Shown piece after piece: positions 52,534 through 57,439 of a stretch of 64,000 bases of DNA. Within the stretch, counting starts at the first letter, position 1. The number at the start of each line of letters is the position of its first letter. The notes beneath the pieces were generated by a model. It was not told the origin of the DNA. It was given only the letters and a program-made list of their open reading frames with translations, and did no database searches. Source of the stretch: an uncultured Actinomycetota bacterium (GTDB lineage Bacteria; Actinomycetota; Thermoleophilia; Gaiellales; Gaiellaceae); NCBI GenBank assembly GCA_963828105.1, contig CAWHDF010000020.1, positions 17,392-81,391 on the forward strand. Reading direction: 5' to 3'. The position numbers and the translations under genes were made by a program.

Positions 52534-53628
52534 TCAGAGGGCGTAGGGGTAGCGTGAGCGTCTGGCCCCGAGGCGCTTGCTGATGCCGCGCGCGAGCCAA
52601 CCAACCGCCCGCACGCCTCGGCGTAGGCCGATGAGTCGTGTCGGTCGTTCGTACTCCTCGACACCCTGTGTCAGCCAGGCGAGATGCCGTACGAGAATCG
52701 CGTAGGCAGTGCTTCCATCGTCGAGTGGGTATTGCGTCGGGATGCTCGCGGAGGCACGGGGCGGCGGGTTGAGTGGGAGTGCTGCGAGCACGAGCCATTC
52801 GCCGCACCCCGGCCGGCCGAGGCGGGCGAGACGTGCGGGGGAGAGGAGAGGTTGTAGGAGCGCGAGTTTGCGCAGCCGCCGCTGCACACGGGGCTCGGAG
52901 AGGCGAATCAGCGCGTCGCTGCGGCTGCGCAGGAGCGGCAGCAACTCGGCCGCCGCTCCTGAGAGGTCGGAACGCTCGAGCGGCGCGAACAGGCCGAGCT
53001 CGAACGCCGGTGGGGTCGGTGTCATGTAGTCCGCGCCGTAGCGGCACTCGCGCAGAAACGAGTGGACGGGTGAGGGGGCTGGGAACGGTTCTCCGCGGAG
53101 GTGAACGGTCTCGAGTTGCTCGACGTACCGCGGCGGCAGGAGGCTTTTTTCTTGAACGCCGGCCCAGTTGCCGACCTCGGCGAGCTCGCAGACGAGCGTC
53201 TCGTTCTCGCGTGTCCAGAGATAAATGTCGACGAAGATCCGGTTCGTTGGGCTGTAGAGGAGCCGCAGGAACGTGCCTCGCTCCTCCAGGAGATGGCCCG
53301 CCTGCTCGAGCTGCGGTCTCAGCGCCAGCACGGCACCGGCGTCCTCCGCATGGATGCCGAGGTCGACGTCCTCGTCCCAGGGGATCAACTCACCGTCCCG
53401 CACAGCGCCGAGCAGCGTGCCGTAGTCGAGCCAGTGAGGAATCCCGTGCTCATCCATGGCCTGGTGGAGCACCTGCAGCAGCTCCATCAGGTGGTCAGTG
53501 CAGCACTGTGGACGCAGCCCGCCGTACTCCCAGTCGTCGCGCCTGCAGCGTTCGCTCGTCGCGGTGCATGCCGCTTGCTGCGTCGGCCGGGCATTGCTGC
53601 TACGCACCAGCGTGCCGCGGCCGATCAC
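52534..53628 (-). CDS. LicD-family phospho(no)transferase with an uncharacterised ~150-aa C-terminal extension
   Basis: HWLDYGTLLGAVRDGELIPWDEDVDLGI (LicD motif). GTG 53628 overlaps the upstream stop (GTGA). The ORF is open to 53829. Confidence 0.75.
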   Translation of the reverse strand: MIGRGTLVRSSNARPTQQAACTATSERCRRDDWEYGGLRPQCCTDHLMELLQVLHQAMDEHGIPHWLDYGTLLGAVRDGELIPWDEDVDLGIHAEDAGAVLALRPQLEQAGHLLEERGTFLRLLYSPTNRIFVDIYLWTRENETLVCELAEVGNWAGVQEKSLLPPRYVEQLETVHLRGEPFPAPSPVHSFLRECRYGADYMTPTPPAFELGLFAPLERSDLSGAAAELLPLLRSRSDALIRLSEPRVQRRLRKLALLQPLLSPARLARLGRPGCGEWLVLAALPLNPPPRASASIPTQYPLDDGSTAYAILVRHLAWLTQGVEEYERPTRLIGLRRGVRAVGWLARGISKRLGARRSRYPYAL

Positions 53629-54065
53629 GCGCTCGCGCCCCCACGCGTTTCGTCGCTTGCGCACTCGACCCGGACACGCTCGAGGATTGTCGACGTCGAG
53701 ATGCCGTCGGTGTAAGGGATGAGGCGCAGGATCCCGAGTGCGCTGACAAGCGGATACCAACGCTGCTGCAAGTCGGTGCCGAAGTCGTCGCCGTGCGCCA
53801 CGATGTCGATGCGATGGCGCTCGAGCCACTCCGCGTCGATGATCAGCGGTGCGTTCGGGACCGCCTCGTCGACGTAGCGGCAGGCGGTGACGACACAGAG
53901 GCGTTCGTCCATCGTCATCACCGGACGACGTTTGTAGGTCATCACGTCCGCGTCAGCATGGATGCCGACGATCAATGTGTCTCCGAGCGCGCGGGCCTGT
54001 CGAAGGAACTGCACATGCCCGCAGTGGAAGAGGTCGGCGACCATATCGACGTAGACACGCGTCAT
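53625..54065 (-). CDS. TagD/ECT-like cytidylyltransferase (HxGH nucleotidyltransferase)
   Basis: VYVDMVADLFHCGHVQFLRQARALGDTLIVGIH, RYVDEAVP, and GISTSTILERV (RTxGISTT-like). Confidence 0.85.
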   Translation of the reverse strand: MTRVYVDMVADLFHCGHVQFLRQARALGDTLIVGIHADADVMTYKRRPVMTMDERLCVVTACRYVDEAVPNAPLIIDAEWLERHRIDIVAHGDDFGTDLQQRWYPLVSALGILRLIPYTDGISTSTILERVRVECASDETRGGASA

Positions 54066-55084
54066 CTCAACGCCTCGAAGAGCTCCCCGATCGTTGTCTC
54101 ATCGATCGCGGCACCCATGTTCGCAACCCGGAAGATTTCCGTCCGTAAGGATTTCTGCCCGTGGTAGATCACGTATCCGTGTTCGAGCGCTCGCGCGGCC
54201 AGCTCGTCCGGATCGCGACCGCCGAGGCGAAACGACGTGAGGACGTGCGAACGCGCCTCCACGGGAAGATAGAGCTCGAAGTCGCGGCCACCGACGTCCC
54301 AAAGCTCGTGCGCGAGCCGCGCGTAGCGGGCCGGGCGGTCCTCGGCGGCGAGCAGGTCGAGCGCGATATCGAGGGCGACGAAGGCCTGCACGTTTGGCGT
54401 TGACGGGAGCGCGTCGACATAGGCGGCGAGGTCGAGCACCGGGGTCGTGCGCTGTGGGCGGAGTGCTGCGTTCCAGAACACGCCCGCAATCCCGGGCAGC
54501 GACTCGAGGCATTTGTTGCTGTTGAAGCAGATGACGTCGGCGCGCGGATCGAGCTCGTGCGCGCCGAAGGAGCTGACTGCATCGACGATCACACGCGCGC
54601 CGAACGCGTGCGCGAGTTCGACGACGGCGCCGAGCGGGTTGAGAAGCCCGGTCGTCGTCTCGTGTTGGACAACCGCCACCCAGTCGGGCCGGGTCGCTTC
54701 GATCGCGCGCTCGAGTTCGGCGAGCTCCGGCGGGCGGCCGAGCCCGGCCGCGTGCTCGACCGTGCTCGCCCCGGCGATCGTCGCGAGCGTCGCGACGAAA
54801 CGGTCACAGTAGAGCCCGTTCGAGATGACGAGCACCTGCCCGCGTACGAGTGAGGTCAGCGCCGCGTCGACGGCGAGCGAACCCGAGCCGTGAAGCAAGC
54901 TCAGCCGGTGGCTTGCGGACGAGAGCCCTGCAGCCTCGTAGAGGCGGACTTGGACGGACTCGTACAGGGCGGCAAACTCGGGTTGCCGGTGGCAGAGCTC
55001 GATGTTGAACAGATTGTCCTTGATCGCGTCGTCGAGGTTGACGGGACCCGGGTTGAGTAGTACCTGGTTGCGCACAGCGAGCAT
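54062..55084 (-). CDS. Class V aminotransferase, 2-aminoethylphosphonate:pyruvate transaminase-like
   Basis: LLNPGPVNL N-terminus and FNSNKCLESLPG PLP-Lys region. ATG 55084 overlaps the upstream stop (TGATG). Confidence 0.75.
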   Translation of the reverse strand: MLAVRNQVLLNPGPVNLDDAIKDNLFNIELCHRQPEFAALYESVQVRLYEAAGLSSASHRLSLLHGSGSLAVDAALTSLVRGQVLVISNGLYCDRFVATLATIAGASTVEHAAGLGRPPELAELERAIEATRPDWVAVVQHETTTGLLNPLGAVVELAHAFGARVIVDAVSSFGAHELDPRADVICFNSNKCLESLPGIAGVFWNAALRPQRTTPVLDLAAYVDALPSTPNVQAFVALDIALDLLAAEDRPARYARLAHELWDVGGRDFELYLPVEARSHVLTSFRLGGRDPDELAARALEHGYVIYHGQKSLRTEIFRVANMGAAIDETTIGELFEALR

Positions 55085-55638
55085 CAGCCCCCGCCCACCT
55101 CCCGCCAGCGGGCGGCGGGGTCGGTGGCGTCCGCTACGCGGCGCCGTGTCAGGGCTGCACGCATTCGTTCGCTGTTGTCGGGCGGTGCGATGCCGACGCG
55201 AGGAGGCTTGCCCCCGCGGGCGACCTTCAGGATCGCGGTTACACCCGGATAGCCGGGCTCGAGCGCCGCGCACAGCTGTCCGCCGACCGATTCGTGGCAG
55301 CCGTTGTCGAGTACGTAGTGAAAGAAGTTGGCCGGAGCGTAGTCGCGCGCAGTGTGCGTCGTGCCGAGCGCCATCAGGAGCGACGCGTCGCCGTTGAGCA
55401 CGACGACGTCAGCGTCGGTCGAGAGCGCGATTCCGAGCCCTATCGCAGGCGCCAGGCCCATGCTCCCCTGCATGTAGAGCACCGCGGCGGCAGGATCGGC
55501 GACTGCAAACACCGCGCGCGCGAGGTAGCCGGTCGAGGCGACGTAGAACGCGTCGATGCCGTGGCGTTCGAAGACGCCGCGAATCGCTTCTTCGCGGTCC
55601 AGCGTCGCCTCAGTCGGCATTGTTGTCACCGTTGACAA
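55084..55638 (-). CDS. Phosphonopyruvate (or sulfopyruvate) decarboxylase beta subunit, ThDP-binding C-terminal half
   Basis: GSMGLAPAIGLGIAL...VVVLNGDASLLMALG...HYVLDNGCHESVGGQ. TTG 55638 or ATG 55620 start; both overlap the alpha-subunit gene. Confidence 0.8.
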   Translation of the reverse strand: MSTVTTMPTEATLDREEAIRGVFERHGIDAFYVASTGYLARAVFAVADPAAAVLYMQGSMGLAPAIGLGIALSTDADVVVLNGDASLLMALGTTHTARDYAPANFFHYVLDNGCHESVGGQLCAALEPGYPGVTAILKVARGGKPPRVGIAPPDNSERMRAALTRRRVADATDPAARWREVGGG

Positions 55639-56023
55639 TCAGGTAGTTCGTCCAGCCGATGAGCGTCAACAGCTGCTCGTCGACCTCACCCATGACCTTG
55701 TGCTGCGGTAGCGAATGGCGATGACCGACGACCAGCAGAACGTCGATTCCGTAGGGGATGCAGAGCGAGGTCAGCGGGTTGATCGTATGGCCGAGGCCTG
55801 CGTTTTGAAGGTAGACGCATGCCTTTCGGCCCGCCAGCGAAGCGCCGGCGGCGATGCCGACTGCCTCGGCCTCCCAGGTGGCGCGCACGTGCATCCCATC
55901 GCCGAGCTCCGAGAGGTCGCTGATGAACTGCTTCAGGCCGCTGTCGGGGACGCCGCTGAAGAAGGTGTAGCCGTCGTCGAGTAGGCGCTCGAGGAGTCCA
56001 CTATCGGACGTAACGTGCTTCAT
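55610..56023 (-). CDS. Phosphonopyruvate (or sulfopyruvate) decarboxylase alpha subunit, ThDP pyrimidine-binding half
   Basis: FFSGVPDSGLKQF, YLQNAGLGHTINPLTSL, LPQH. AAGGAGA RBS lies inside the upstream gene. Confidence 0.8.
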   Translation of the reverse strand: MKHVTSDSGLLERLLDDGYTFFSGVPDSGLKQFISDLSELGDGMHVRATWEAEAVGIAAGASLAGRKACVYLQNAGLGHTINPLTSLCIPYGIDVLLVVGHRHSLPQHKVMGEVDEQLLTLIGWTNYLIVNGDNNAD

Positions 56024-56903
56024 TCTCCTTCAGTTCGTCCAGATAGATAAGGCGGAAGATCTCATCCATGCCGACGACTTCATCATCGCCGTCTGCGAGA
56101 CGCTTATGCTCCATCACTGCCGCGAAGGTCGTCTGGAGTGCTTTCACAATCGCACGAACGCCGTAGTTCGCGAAGATGATCAGTTTGAAGCCGGCACTGT
56201 CGAGCTCGTCGTAGGCGACGGTGTTGTACGTCGTCGGCACGCAGACGAGTGGGGCAATCTCGTTTCGGTGCCAGCGCTCCGCGAACTCGAGCACCGGGCG
56301 GGCGTCGTCGCCCTTGTGATGAATCAGGATCGCCTCCGCGCCGGCCGCCGCGTACTCTTTCGCGCGCTCAAGCGCGACCTCGACGCCGAGGCCCTTATTG
56401 AGGGCCTCGGTGCGCGCGATGATCGTAAAATCGTCACGCGTACGCTTCTCGATGGCGGCCTGGATCTTTCCGCAGAAGGTTGACGCCCGCTCGAGGTCCT
56501 CTTGCATGTCGTCGTAGAAGCTGCATCGCTTCGGAAAAGGGTTGTCCTCGATACACATGCCGCTCGCACCGGCCTTGTCGAATTCACGCACCAGCCGGAT
56601 CGTGTTGATCGCGTTCCCGCCCCCTGCGTTACCGTCAACGAGTACCGGTAGGGAAACACGGTCGGAAATCTGCTGGACCACCGAGACGTAATCCTGCGTA
56701 CCAAGAATGTCGGCATCAGGTAGGCGCGCGGCCGCGTGCACCTCGAAGCTCGAGATCCAGACCGCATCGGCGCCCGATTCCTCCGCGATCTTTGCTCCGA
56801 GTGCGTTGTGCACGCCCACGACCACCGAGGCATGGGAGCCTCGTAGAAGCTCTGCGATCGTCACTGCTGGGACTCTCATGAGATGATCAACCCCCCGGCT
56901 CAT
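56001..56903 (-). CDS. PEP mutase-like enzyme (isocitrate lyase/PEP mutase superfamily) with non-canonical motifs
   Basis: HNALGAKIAEESGADAVWISSFEVHAA, IARTEAL, a C-terminal helix-swap-like tail, and operon context. It carries VDGNAGGGN and IEDNPFPKRCS where PepM normally has D-x-D-T-G-F-G and E-D-K-x5-N-S. Confidence 0.7.
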   Translation of the reverse strand: MSRGVDHLMRVPAVTIAELLRGSHASVVVGVHNALGAKIAEESGADAVWISSFEVHAAARLPDADILGTQDYVSVVQQISDRVSLPVLVDGNAGGGNAINTIRLVREFDKAGASGMCIEDNPFPKRCSFYDDMQEDLERASTFCGKIQAAIEKRTRDDFTIIARTEALNKGLGVEVALERAKEYAAAGAEAILIHHKGDDARPVLEFAERWHRNEIAPLVCVPTTYNTVAYDELDSAGFKLIIFANYGVRAIVKALQTTFAAVMEHKRLADGDDEVVGMDEIFRLIYLDELKENEARYVR

Positions 56904-56912
56904 CGATTTCTC

Positions 56913-56940
56913 ATAATAACCAGATTGACACGAGATACAA
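56913..56940 (-). promoter_or_regulatory. Candidate sigma70-type promoter of the phosphonate operon (near-leaderless)
   Basis: Minus strand reads TTGTAT-N16-TATTAT, ending about 9 nt before ATG 56903, in a locally AT-rich stretch. Confidence 0.4.
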
Positions 56941-57355
56941 ACGTGTTCGCCACATCATGGCCCGCCGGTAGCGCGGCGAAACCCAGCCAGAAGCAAGACG
57001 GCTCAGGCCCGCGGCGTTCGACTCGCTGTCGGCGGCCCGCTACGGGCGTGGAGCGAGGTGCGGCCGCGGCCACGCTTCGCAGCGCCCAAGGCCGAGGCCG
57101 GGCGGGGCGACGGTTTCGAGGCGGCGCTTCTGTTGGTTTTGGCTCGTATCCCGACCCGGGCTGATCGGGTGCCAACGCCTTGCTTCGAACGGCGCATGCA
57201 ACCCAGAAGACGCCGACAAAAAGCGGAAATACGAGCCGTCCCTTTTATGCGGCGAGAGTGAGCTCGCTCAATGCGGTGAACGGGCTTTCGCTCTCAGCGC
57301 GCGAGCCGCGATTCGGGTAACCAAGGATCGGCGCGGATTCGTATGAGCCGAGCGC

Positions 57356-57388
57356 GGGAGAGGGCCGCTCGTGTGAGCGGCCCTCTCC
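57356..57388 (-). terminator. Strong GC hairpin downstream of the binding-protein gene
   Basis: GGGAGAGGGCCGCTC-GTGT-GAGCGGCCCTCTCC, a 14-bp stem. No clear U-tract on the minus strand. Confidence 0.45.
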
Positions 57389-57439
57389 GTTCGCTTTCGG
57401 TACCGCCGCTTGCGTGATCGGCCAGCGGGCGGCGCTGGA

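Follow-up and report, generated by a model that had tools for sequence, protein, structure and literature searches.

How far can a phosphoenolpyruvate (PEP) mutase depart from the motifs by which the family is recognised and still form a carbon-phosphorus (C-P) bond? The question is raised by a gene in a 64,000-nt stretch of DNA from an uncultured actinobacterium of the Gaiellaceae (GenBank assembly GCA_963828105.1, contig CAWHDF010000020.1, positions 17,392 to 81,391 of the forward strand; the whole stretch is called the window below). The gene lies in a large, conserved branch that does not carry the 'diagnostic' PEP mutase (PepM) motif. Our prediction for this gene, from a peat-soil actinobacterium, is that its product most likely still forms the C-P bond of phosphonates. 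The gene and its two variant motifs are:

56001..56903, minus strand: open reading frame (ORF) of 300 aa, the PEP-mutase-branch gene of the type that we call CS-type
56613..56639, minus strand: metal-site strand V89-D90-G-N92-A93-G-G95-G-N97, which translates as VDGNAGGGN
56520..56552, minus strand: start of the gating loop, I118-E-D-N121-P-F-P-K125-R126-C127-S128, which translates as IEDNPFPKRCS

The true start may be Met9, at 56879, since the homologues are 288-292 aa long.

Both diagnostic motifs are altered in the gene product

The original prediction, made from the letters of the sequence, was that this protein deviates from PEP mutases in both of their diagnostic motifs, and re-reading the window translation returned VDGNAGGGN and IEDNPFPKRCS as quoted. 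The ranges given for them were exact, but each begins one codon after the first residue quoted (the V89 codon is 56637-56639 and the I118 codon is 56550-56552). The canonical motifs, as given there, match the solved structures and the literature motif EDKX5NS (PMC6697681, PMC8942020).

Both motif stretches align without gaps (phmmer) to three solved relatives: 5UNC, the PEP mutase of Streptomyces platensis (vadcdtgygn / iedkrfpkvnsf at the aligned stretches), 1M1B, that of Mytilus (lldadtgygn / ledklfpktnsl), and 2DUA, a phosphonopyruvate hydrolase (PPH; iadidtgfgn / medktfpkdtsl). These alignments rule out an alignment artefact, and no alternative gap placement restored the canonical residues. 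With the Mytilus residue given first, the substitutions are D87 to N92, T88 to A93, Y90 to G95, K116 to N121, N122 to C127 and G47 to S52, while W44, S46, D58, D85, E114, K120, S123, R159 and H190 (Mytilus numbering) are retained. The E-D-K-x5-N-S gating loop is therefore not matched: its E and D, K120 and S123 are kept, and Lys116 and Asn122 are replaced. At the Mg2+ site D63, D90 (Mytilus D85) and E119 are present, and the position of the water-holding Asp87 is taken by Asn92. The phosphoryl-binding R164 and H195 and the PepM-specific W49 (R159, H190 and W44 in Mytilus) are also in place.

C127, which stands where Mytilus has Asn122, falls in the alignment column of the catalytic Cys of the lyases. 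The likeness of K-R-C to the lyase loop K-[KR]-C-G-H, which had also been pointed out, holds column by column in the alignment, where petal death protein reads KKCGH and the methylisocitrate lyases of E. coli and Burkholderia read KRCGH. It stops there: the G-H that follows the Cys in lyases is missing in the gene product, which has S-F instead, and at the PepM-specific positions H190 and W44, where lyases carry E and Y/F, it has the PepM residues, His rather than Glu at the former.

The gene product belongs to the PEP mutase branch

The gene product matches PF13714 with 155.3 bits. Its best NCBIfam model is TIGR02320 (PEP mutase), at 251.8 bits against a cut-off of 319.55, which leaves it 68 bits short. 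The PPH model TIGR02321 comes second (179.3 bits against a cut-off of 374.4), and the models for methylisocitrate lyase (TIGR02317, 145 bits against 354) and carboxy-PEP mutase (TIGR02319, 117.1 bits against 420) score lower. Homologues are named 'isocitrate lyase/PEP mutase family protein' by NCBI and 'phosphoenolpyruvate phosphomutase' by JGI. The best sequence match in the PDB is 5UNC (E 4e-67). An AlphaFold model (predicted local distance difference test, pLDDT, 92.8) has the TIM-barrel fold of the PEP mutase/isocitrate lyase (ICL) superfamily, including the C-terminal helices of the PepM type. Its best fold matches are 5UNC and 1PYM, with template-modelling (TM) scores of 0.91-0.95 and root-mean-square deviations (rmsd) of 1.1-1.7 Å over 282-288 columns (1.1 Å for 5UNC); PEP mutases rank first, followed by PPH and then by lyases at TM ~0.83.

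The original prediction had called for a phylogeny. We removed both motif regions from 101 sequences and computed a maximum-likelihood tree (LG+C20, with ultrafast bootstrap and SH-aLRT support), rooted with four lyases as the outgroup to an ingroup of 97 sequences. The PepM branch, including our gene product, splits from the lyases at 100/99, so that the protein groups with PEP mutase and PPH rather than with the lyases. Within the branch, the 34 canonical sequences in the sample all fall in one crown clade (98/99), together with PPH, the relatives of PPH and some single-residue variants; the gene product lies outside it. All 34 Cys-bearing sequences also lie outside the crown, in a poorly resolved basal grade that they share with EDN..N-S (N116/N122) forms, and a tree constrained to unite every Cys form in a single clade was rejected (delta lnL 109, p-AU 0.002). 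Neither its loop, N..K-R-C-S rather than K-D-T-S, nor its position, apart from the PPH clade (100/99), marks the gene product as a PPH.

By Fitch parsimony, the ancestral state of the PepM branch is N116, R121, C122 and S123, and that of the crown is K116 and N122. On this reconstruction the 'diagnostic' motif would be confined to the crown clade, the Cys would be inherited from a lyase ancestor, and the K-R-C resemblance would be ancestral retention and not convergence. We grade this scenario as a supported hypothesis rather than a result, because backbone support is weak and the bootstrap was not fully converged.

The variant residues are conserved, and vary together in a wider group

Conservation was assessed in the 120 database homologues nearest to the protein (71-82% identity, most of them from soil and peat metagenomes). 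C127, K125 and R126 are each found in 120/120, N92 in 119/120 and N121 in 118/120. Conservation of variant residues in 119-120 of 120 homologues means that the deviation is not noise or decay, and rules out a pseudogene or drift.

We refer to proteins with an EDN..K[KR]C-S loop (E-D-N-x-[FY]-P-K-[KR]-C-S, against the canonical E-D-K-x5-N-S) as CS-type. The pattern EDNx[FY]PK[RK]C has at least 600 metagenome matches, and 584 of the 600 among the matches listed encode relatives. The 150 best representatives (50% identity) in a library of 1.8 billion proteins include about 19 clusters with both N116 and C122, and other loops (EDN..KRNS, KRSS and KRHS) are also found.

Residue statistics were taken from 143 PepM-branch representatives clustered at 50% identity, with counts uncorrected for phylogeny. 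Invariant in this set are W44, D58, D85, E114, S123 and R159, all present in the gene product; K116, x121 and N122 vary, and D87 does so more rarely. C122 tracks N116 (17/18 against 17/125), and the absence of K116 tracks [KR]121 (34/43 against 24/100), so that the covariation of 116 and 121 looks like a move of positive charge from the first position to the second. D87 is missing in 10 of the 143, including two with a canonical EDK..NS loop, and is therefore not strictly needed for membership; D87N is also seen in other lineages, these two canonical EDK..NS proteins (P0225 and P0255) among them. The metal-site strand changes in steps, from ADCDNGYG in CS-type proteins broadly to VDGDAGGGS in the sister clade (46-55% identity) and VDGNAGGGN in the clade of our gene (the query clade). 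Position 92 is D in 17/17 sister sequences, against N in 119/120 of the query clade, where D92N is fixed jointly with S97N and P98A.

The CS-type gene is the only PEP mutase candidate in its genome

If a separate canonical PepM supplied phosphonopyruvate (PnPy), the CS-type protein could be doing something else. The only other PF13714 matches in the source genome (88% complete) are isocitrate lyase and PanB, and none of 11 further genomes that carry the gene has a TIGR02320 match above the cut-off (204-256 bits). We therefore rejected a separate PepM; as judged by these searches, the CS-type enzyme is the sole candidate C-P bond former in its genome.

The gene is a rare accessory trait within its lineage. 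In 400 species representatives of the same class, the window copy was accompanied by only one 56%-identical pseudogene; the gene was not found in eight genomes of the same genus, and a phylum-wide sample of 400 held ten canonical PEP mutases and no further CS-type. The pseudogene (L118, G512:C5:1420454-1421233; 55-56% identity), from another species of the class, has three in-frame TGA codons, and a second locus (L012, 7001-7851) is probably likewise a decaying copy of the gene. Such decaying copies are consistent with a patchy accessory distribution. Metagenomes from peat, wetland, soil and permafrost contain DNA that is nearly identical. Named relatives are metagenome-assembled genomes (MAGs) of Acidimicrobiales and Frankiales, and a more distant KKCS form is found in a Candidatus Peribacteraceae MAG. 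No CS-type sequence was found in phage records or IMG/VR, and no RNA runs containing the gene were found.

We also looked for a cultured carrier, but the plasmid matches checked, in Bacillus paranthracis and Priestia megaterium, carry the canonical EDK..NS loop. These two clusters (L115 6941-14096, on a plasmid of B. paranthracis NVH 0075/95, and L116 144-7906, on a plasmid of P. megaterium KF18) encode PEP mutases annotated merely as 'isocitrate lyase/PEP mutase family protein', together with ATP-grasp ligases, a split thiamine diphosphate (ThDP) enzyme and carbamoyltransferase-like genes. The first also has a TauD dioxygenase and a major facilitator superfamily (MFS) exporter, and the second just an MFS fragment past an IS6 transposase. 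By their gene content they are probable phosphonopeptide gene clusters, so far unannotated, in cultured Bacillaceae.

The gene heads an operon for a probable phosphonate surface decoration pathway

The mutase gene heads a six-gene operon of overlapping genes (window 52534-56903, minus strand). The genes that follow it, in order of transcription, are:

55610..56023, minus strand: ThDP decarboxylase alpha subunit, 137 aa (TIGR03297, 103.7 bits; 9IZ3_A)
55084..55638, minus strand: ThDP decarboxylase beta subunit, up to 184 aa (TIGR03297, 101 bits; 9IZ3_B)
54062..55084, minus strand: class V aminotransferase of the 2-aminoethylphosphonate (AEP) transaminase type (TIGR03301, 185.7 bits, below cut-off)
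53625..54065, minus strand: HxGH cytidylyltransferase of the TagD/ECT type, 146 aa (PF01467, 69.8 bits)
52534..53628, minus strand: LicD-family phosphotransferase, ~364 aa (PF04991, 52.6 bits)

The decarboxylase alpha gene overlaps the mutase gene by 23 nt. Both subunits score higher on TIGR03297, the model for phosphonopyruvate decarboxylase (Ppd), than on those for the sulfopyruvate decarboxylase subunits (103.7 against 69.3 bits for alpha, 101 against 80.4 for beta). In the PDB, alpha best matches RhiE (9IZ3_A), a subunit of the split PnPy decarboxylase RhiEF, and the sole match of beta is RhiF (9IZ3_B, 1.9e-18). RhiEF is a characterised heteromeric phosphonopyruvate decarboxylase (PMC12141560, citing Nakamura et al. 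2024). A sulfopyruvate decarboxylase and taurine pathway was rejected on these scores against ComD/E and on the best structure, RhiEF; it is also unfit because the cytidylyltransferase and LicD require a phosph(on)ate. Formation of phosphoethanolamine from phosphohydroxypyruvate was considered and set aside, as it would give the mutase-fold enzyme no role.

Met64 of a long ORF is the likely start of the aminotransferase and overlaps the preceding stop codon by one base; homologues of the enzyme are 341-342 aa long. Its best PDB matches are the AEP-pyruvate transaminases 7E7G and 1M32, and TIGR03301 is the PhnW-AepZ model. The phosphonate-binding Arg of the transaminase is conserved, but it does not discriminate, because this Arg is general to the aminotransferase class. 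The cytidylyltransferase gene is kept directly after the aminotransferase gene in relatives, and LicD, whose length is counted from a GTG that overlaps the cytidylyltransferase stop, comes after the same gene set in locus L003 and in several metagenome loci. All the partners of a Pnt-type operon (Ppd, AEP transaminase, cytidylyltransferase and LicD-type transferase) adjoin the mutase, in overlapping genes.

Upstream of the operon, in 56904-57439, about 450 nt without a credible ORF separate its start from a 14-bp GC-rich hairpin (57357-57388), probably the terminator of the upstream gene for an OpuAC-type binding protein. No sigma-70-like promoter was picked up in this interval, and the search for a riboswitch or leader upstream of the operon gave no Rfam match better than E = 0.5.

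Relatives of the gene keep the same partners

We tallied the neighbourhoods of those CS-type metagenome loci that have 1.5 kb or more of downstream sequence. Of these 52 loci, 47 have a Ppd-like gene no further than 5 kb away (16/16 in the query clade and 31/36 in others), and a cytidylyl- or nucleotidyltransferase is likewise present in 47/52; for comparison, about 83% of canonical Ppm neighbourhoods have ppd (PMC8942020). The same gene set was found again in unrelated flanks, sometimes with a methyltransferase. Other CS-type lineages adjoin a full-length Ppd, a 2-hydroxyacid dehydrogenase, or a split Ppd with an aldehyde dehydrogenase. By family assignment, these neighbours would be the branch-point enzymes catalogued for canonical PEP mutases, which consume PnPy or phosphonoacetaldehyde (PnAA). 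No second PEPM-fold gene was found in any CS-type locus except L012, with its fragmented pseudogene copy. Fusion to a MobA-like nucleotidyltransferase (NTP_transf_3) is seen in several CS-type representatives, and fusion to a ThDP N-domain in one.

A number of these loci have features of their own. A gene for an S-adenosylmethionine-dependent methyltransferase lies between those for the cytidylyltransferase and LicD in L003 (11240-11896) and between those for the decarboxylase and aminotransferase in L063, L064, L076 and L078, which suggests N-methylated AEP, a choline phosphonate analogue, as the group transferred. In the Candidatus Peribacteraceae MAG (L033, 7001-12979), the KKCS-loop PEP-mutase-like gene is accompanied by genes for a split ThDP decarboxylase and an aldehyde dehydrogenase, followed by a 441-aa protein without an assigned function, an ornithine carbamoyltransferase-like protein and a haloacid dehalogenase-type (HAD) hydrolase; the cluster looks like a phosphonoacetate-type route in a bacterium of the candidate phyla radiation. 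A CS-type cluster on a 24-kb contig from a groundwater 0.1-um filter (L034, 7001-12667) includes a fusion of NTP_transf_3 with a phosphodiesterase-family domain, and is surrounded by genes for an intein-bearing ribonucleotide reductase, dCMP deaminase and uracil-DNA glycosylase and by many ORFans, as in an ultra-small bacterium or a phage. Finally, five fusions of a CS-type domain to a nucleotidyltransferase have no decarboxylase nearby. Two of them (L093 3081-9454 and L110 5974-9373) have a CDP-alcohol phosphatidyltransferase as neighbour, joined in L093 by a class III aminotransferase and an AMP-binding-like protein; the gene content of the decarboxylase-less fusions hints at a phosphonolipid route with another sink for phosphonopyruvate.

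Proposed function and alternatives

We consider it probable that the gene encodes a working CS-type PEP mutase that feeds an operon for surface decoration through AEP, the cytidine monophosphate conjugate of AEP (CMP-AEP) and LicD. This reading draws on several lines of evidence: PF13714 matches, TIGR02320 is the best NCBIfam model and the top sequence and fold matches are PEP mutases; all residues invariant in the PepM branch are present, along with K120 and H190; the variant residues are under selection (119-120/120); this is the only PepM-branch gene in the genome; and it is linked to a Ppd-like gene in 47/52 loci, occurs in fusions and is followed by a RhiEF-like decarboxylase. That such changes can be tolerated is suggested by the repeated interchange of C and N at position 122 in related lineages with the same partners; S and H also occur there, and D87N recurs in PepMs that are otherwise canonical.

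In the mechanism that we propose, PEP would bind Mg2+ with D90 as direct ligand and D63, E119 and N92 acting through waters, N92 being an amide that would replace Asp87 at the Mg2+ site. Loop 120-139 would shut over the active site, and R164 and H195 would hold the phosphoryl group during its migration from O2 to C3, yielding phosphonopyruvate. C127 would occupy the place of Asn122 lining the phosphoryl pocket, with K125 and S128 retained, and R126 may give a polar contact as well as the positive charge that goes missing with Lys116. The split decarboxylase, translationally coupled to the mutase, would pull the unfavourable equilibrium, giving phosphonoacetaldehyde, from which the class V aminotransferase would make AEP. 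The HxGH cytidylyltransferase would turn AEP into CMP-AEP, and LicD would pass the phosphonyl-amine to a final acceptor, presumably a surface glycan or lipid.

Several points weigh against this assignment. The score of 251.8 bits is under the curated TIGR02320 cut-off of 319.55, and two residues treated as catalytic or diagnostic are absent. Contact with the migrating phosphoryl group is ascribed to Asn122, and Asn122Thr is the usual explanation for why PPH hydrolyses instead of isomerising (PMC7916636). A Cys found in 120/120 homologues at the acid/base position of the lyases suggests that it has some use. Two of the partners, the decarboxylase and the aminotransferase, likewise fall short of their equivalog cut-offs, so that the pathway as a whole is divergent. 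The carriers are uncultured throughout, no transcripts of the gene turned up, and chemistry cannot be proved from gene context.

A broader evolutionary reading, which we think unlikely, takes CS-type proteins as survivors of the earliest PEP mutases that have kept the lyase Cys, for C-P formation or for a related other reaction. The Cys would then be used, for example, as S-phosphocysteine or in thiol-assisted handling of the pyruvate enolate, and E-D-K-x5-N-S would be a late invention of one crown clade.

Another reading, to which we give little credence, is that phosphonopyruvate is formed by another mechanism in which the retained Cys takes part, such as a transient S-phosphocysteine carrier in the O-to-C migration or a thiol/thiolate that gates the loop; CS-type would then be a surviving early C-P bond-forming enzyme. 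The Cys is present in a diverse set of 17 sequences chosen for C122 as well as in all 120 close homologues, it occupies the column of the lyases' catalytic Cys, and position 122 lines the phosphoryl pocket of PepM (PMC7916636). C122 forms make up part of the basal grade, and the parsimony root is N116/R121/C122, but the backbone of that tree is weakly resolved. Furthermore, the interchange of C with N, and also with S and H, alongside the same partners fits a passive lining better than an essential nucleophile, and canonical PepM is held to use a dissociative transfer with no covalent intermediate (PMC7916636).

It is similarly improbable, in our view, that the PepM-fold enzyme uses Cys127 as an acid/base on another substrate, giving a 2-oxo acid that the Ppd-like decarboxylase takes up, so that the operon product is not AEP. 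The lyase-like K-R-C loop, the loss of Asp87 in the query clade and the scores of mutase, decarboxylase and aminotransferase, all below equivalog cut-offs, would fit such chemistry. The rest of the active site does not: it is without the G-H and the Glu of the lyases and has R159, H190 and W44 of PepM, and the lyase and carboxy-PEP mutase scores (145 and 117 bits) are far under that for PepM (252). In addition, the cytidylyltransferase and LicD need an amine that resembles a phosph(on)ate monoester; we found no primary metabolite but PEP that the fold could convert to such a precursor, and sulfopyruvate/taurine logic does not fit these two enzymes or the higher Ppd than ComDE scores. The original prediction had set a divergent mutase subfamily beside an ICL-superfamily enzyme whose different chemistry would feed the decarboxylase. 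Branch position, TM of 0.91-0.95, W44/R159/H190, the status of sole PepM-branch gene in the genome and the coupled split decarboxylase favour the first; the second is weakened by the PepM-branch evidence, and keeps the small probability given here.

A PPH-like or otherwise degradative enzyme or an inactive paralogue is very improbable: a residue other than Asn at 122, the position that separates PPH from PepM (a difference ascribed to Asn122Thr; PMC7916636), could favour hydrolysis of PnPy or PEP, and TIGR02321 ranks second among the models (179 bits), but PPH and its relatives (K-D-[TS]-S, Lys116 kept) are nested in the canonical crown, far from CS-type, the context is biosynthetic, with no PalB-type partner or transporter and no canonical PepM in the genome to provide PnPy, and strong purifying selection and fusions to biosynthetic domains argue against a relic.

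Implications for phosphonate surveys

In a literature search that mostly did not cover subscription journals, we found no published description or assay of the CS-type variant, nor any paper that treats it as an already characterised PepM clade. The genome-mining surveys consulted accept PEP mutases only with E-D-K-x5-N-S (PMC6697681, PMC8942020, PMC12723261), and one admits up to two motif deviations beside Ppd or MpnS, without comment (bioRxiv 10.1101/2020.11.04.368217). CS-type proteins are discarded by motif-filtered surveys because they lack E-D-K-x5-N-S, and they fail the NCBI equivalog cut-off as well. If they are active, current counts understate the phosphonate-producing capacity of bacteria in soil, peat and groundwater, C-P bond formation can do without Asn122 and Lys116, and a natural C to S to N series at position 122 is available for studying lyase-to-mutase evolution. 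The query clade goes one step beyond CS-type at large, with the metal-site Asp replaced by Asn. The pathway logic is ordinary; what is noteworthy is that a widely used diagnostic motif is undermined and that a route from lyase to mutase becomes testable.

Comparison with known systems

Canonical PEP mutase (PepM/Ppm, EC 5.4.2.9; 1M1B/1PYM, 5UNC) shares with our gene product its fold, length and C-terminal helices (TM 0.91-0.95, 34-40% identity) and the same partnership with a PnPy decarboxylase. The gene product differs from it in K116N, N122C, D87N, T88A, Y90G and G47S and in lying outside the 98/99 crown that holds all sampled EDK..NS sequences. The PPH PalA (Variovorax sp. Pal2, 2DUA) has the same PepM-branch fold and likewise a residue other than Asn at 122, but it keeps Lys116, reads K-D-T-S, lies inside the crown and is catabolic, whereas our gene sits in a biosynthetic operon. 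PrpB, petal death protein and isocitrate lyase have K-R-C in identical columns, and the Gly-rich D-G-x-x-G-G-G strand of petal death protein resembles that of the gene product. In these lyases, however, the loop runs on as G-H rather than S-F, Glu replaces His and Tyr/Phe replaces Trp; they have 22-28% identity to our protein and TM ~0.83, and form the outgroup at 100/99.

At the level of the pathway, the closest parallel in logic is the Pnt pathway (Ppm-Ppd-AEPT-PntC with a LicD-like transferase; Rice et al. 2019, PMC6697681), which likewise runs from AEP through CMP-AEP to LicD; here the mutase is CS-type, the decarboxylase is split and the cytidylyltransferase is a stand-alone PF01467 (TagD/ECT) protein rather than a PF12804 PntC. 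The closest solved relative of both decarboxylase subunits is RhiEF of rhizocticin biosynthesis (9IZ3/9IZ4), with the same split alpha/beta architecture, although the similarity is low (53-70 bits) and in the rhizocticin pathway PnAA passes to the aldolase RhiG and not to a transaminase (PMC8942020).

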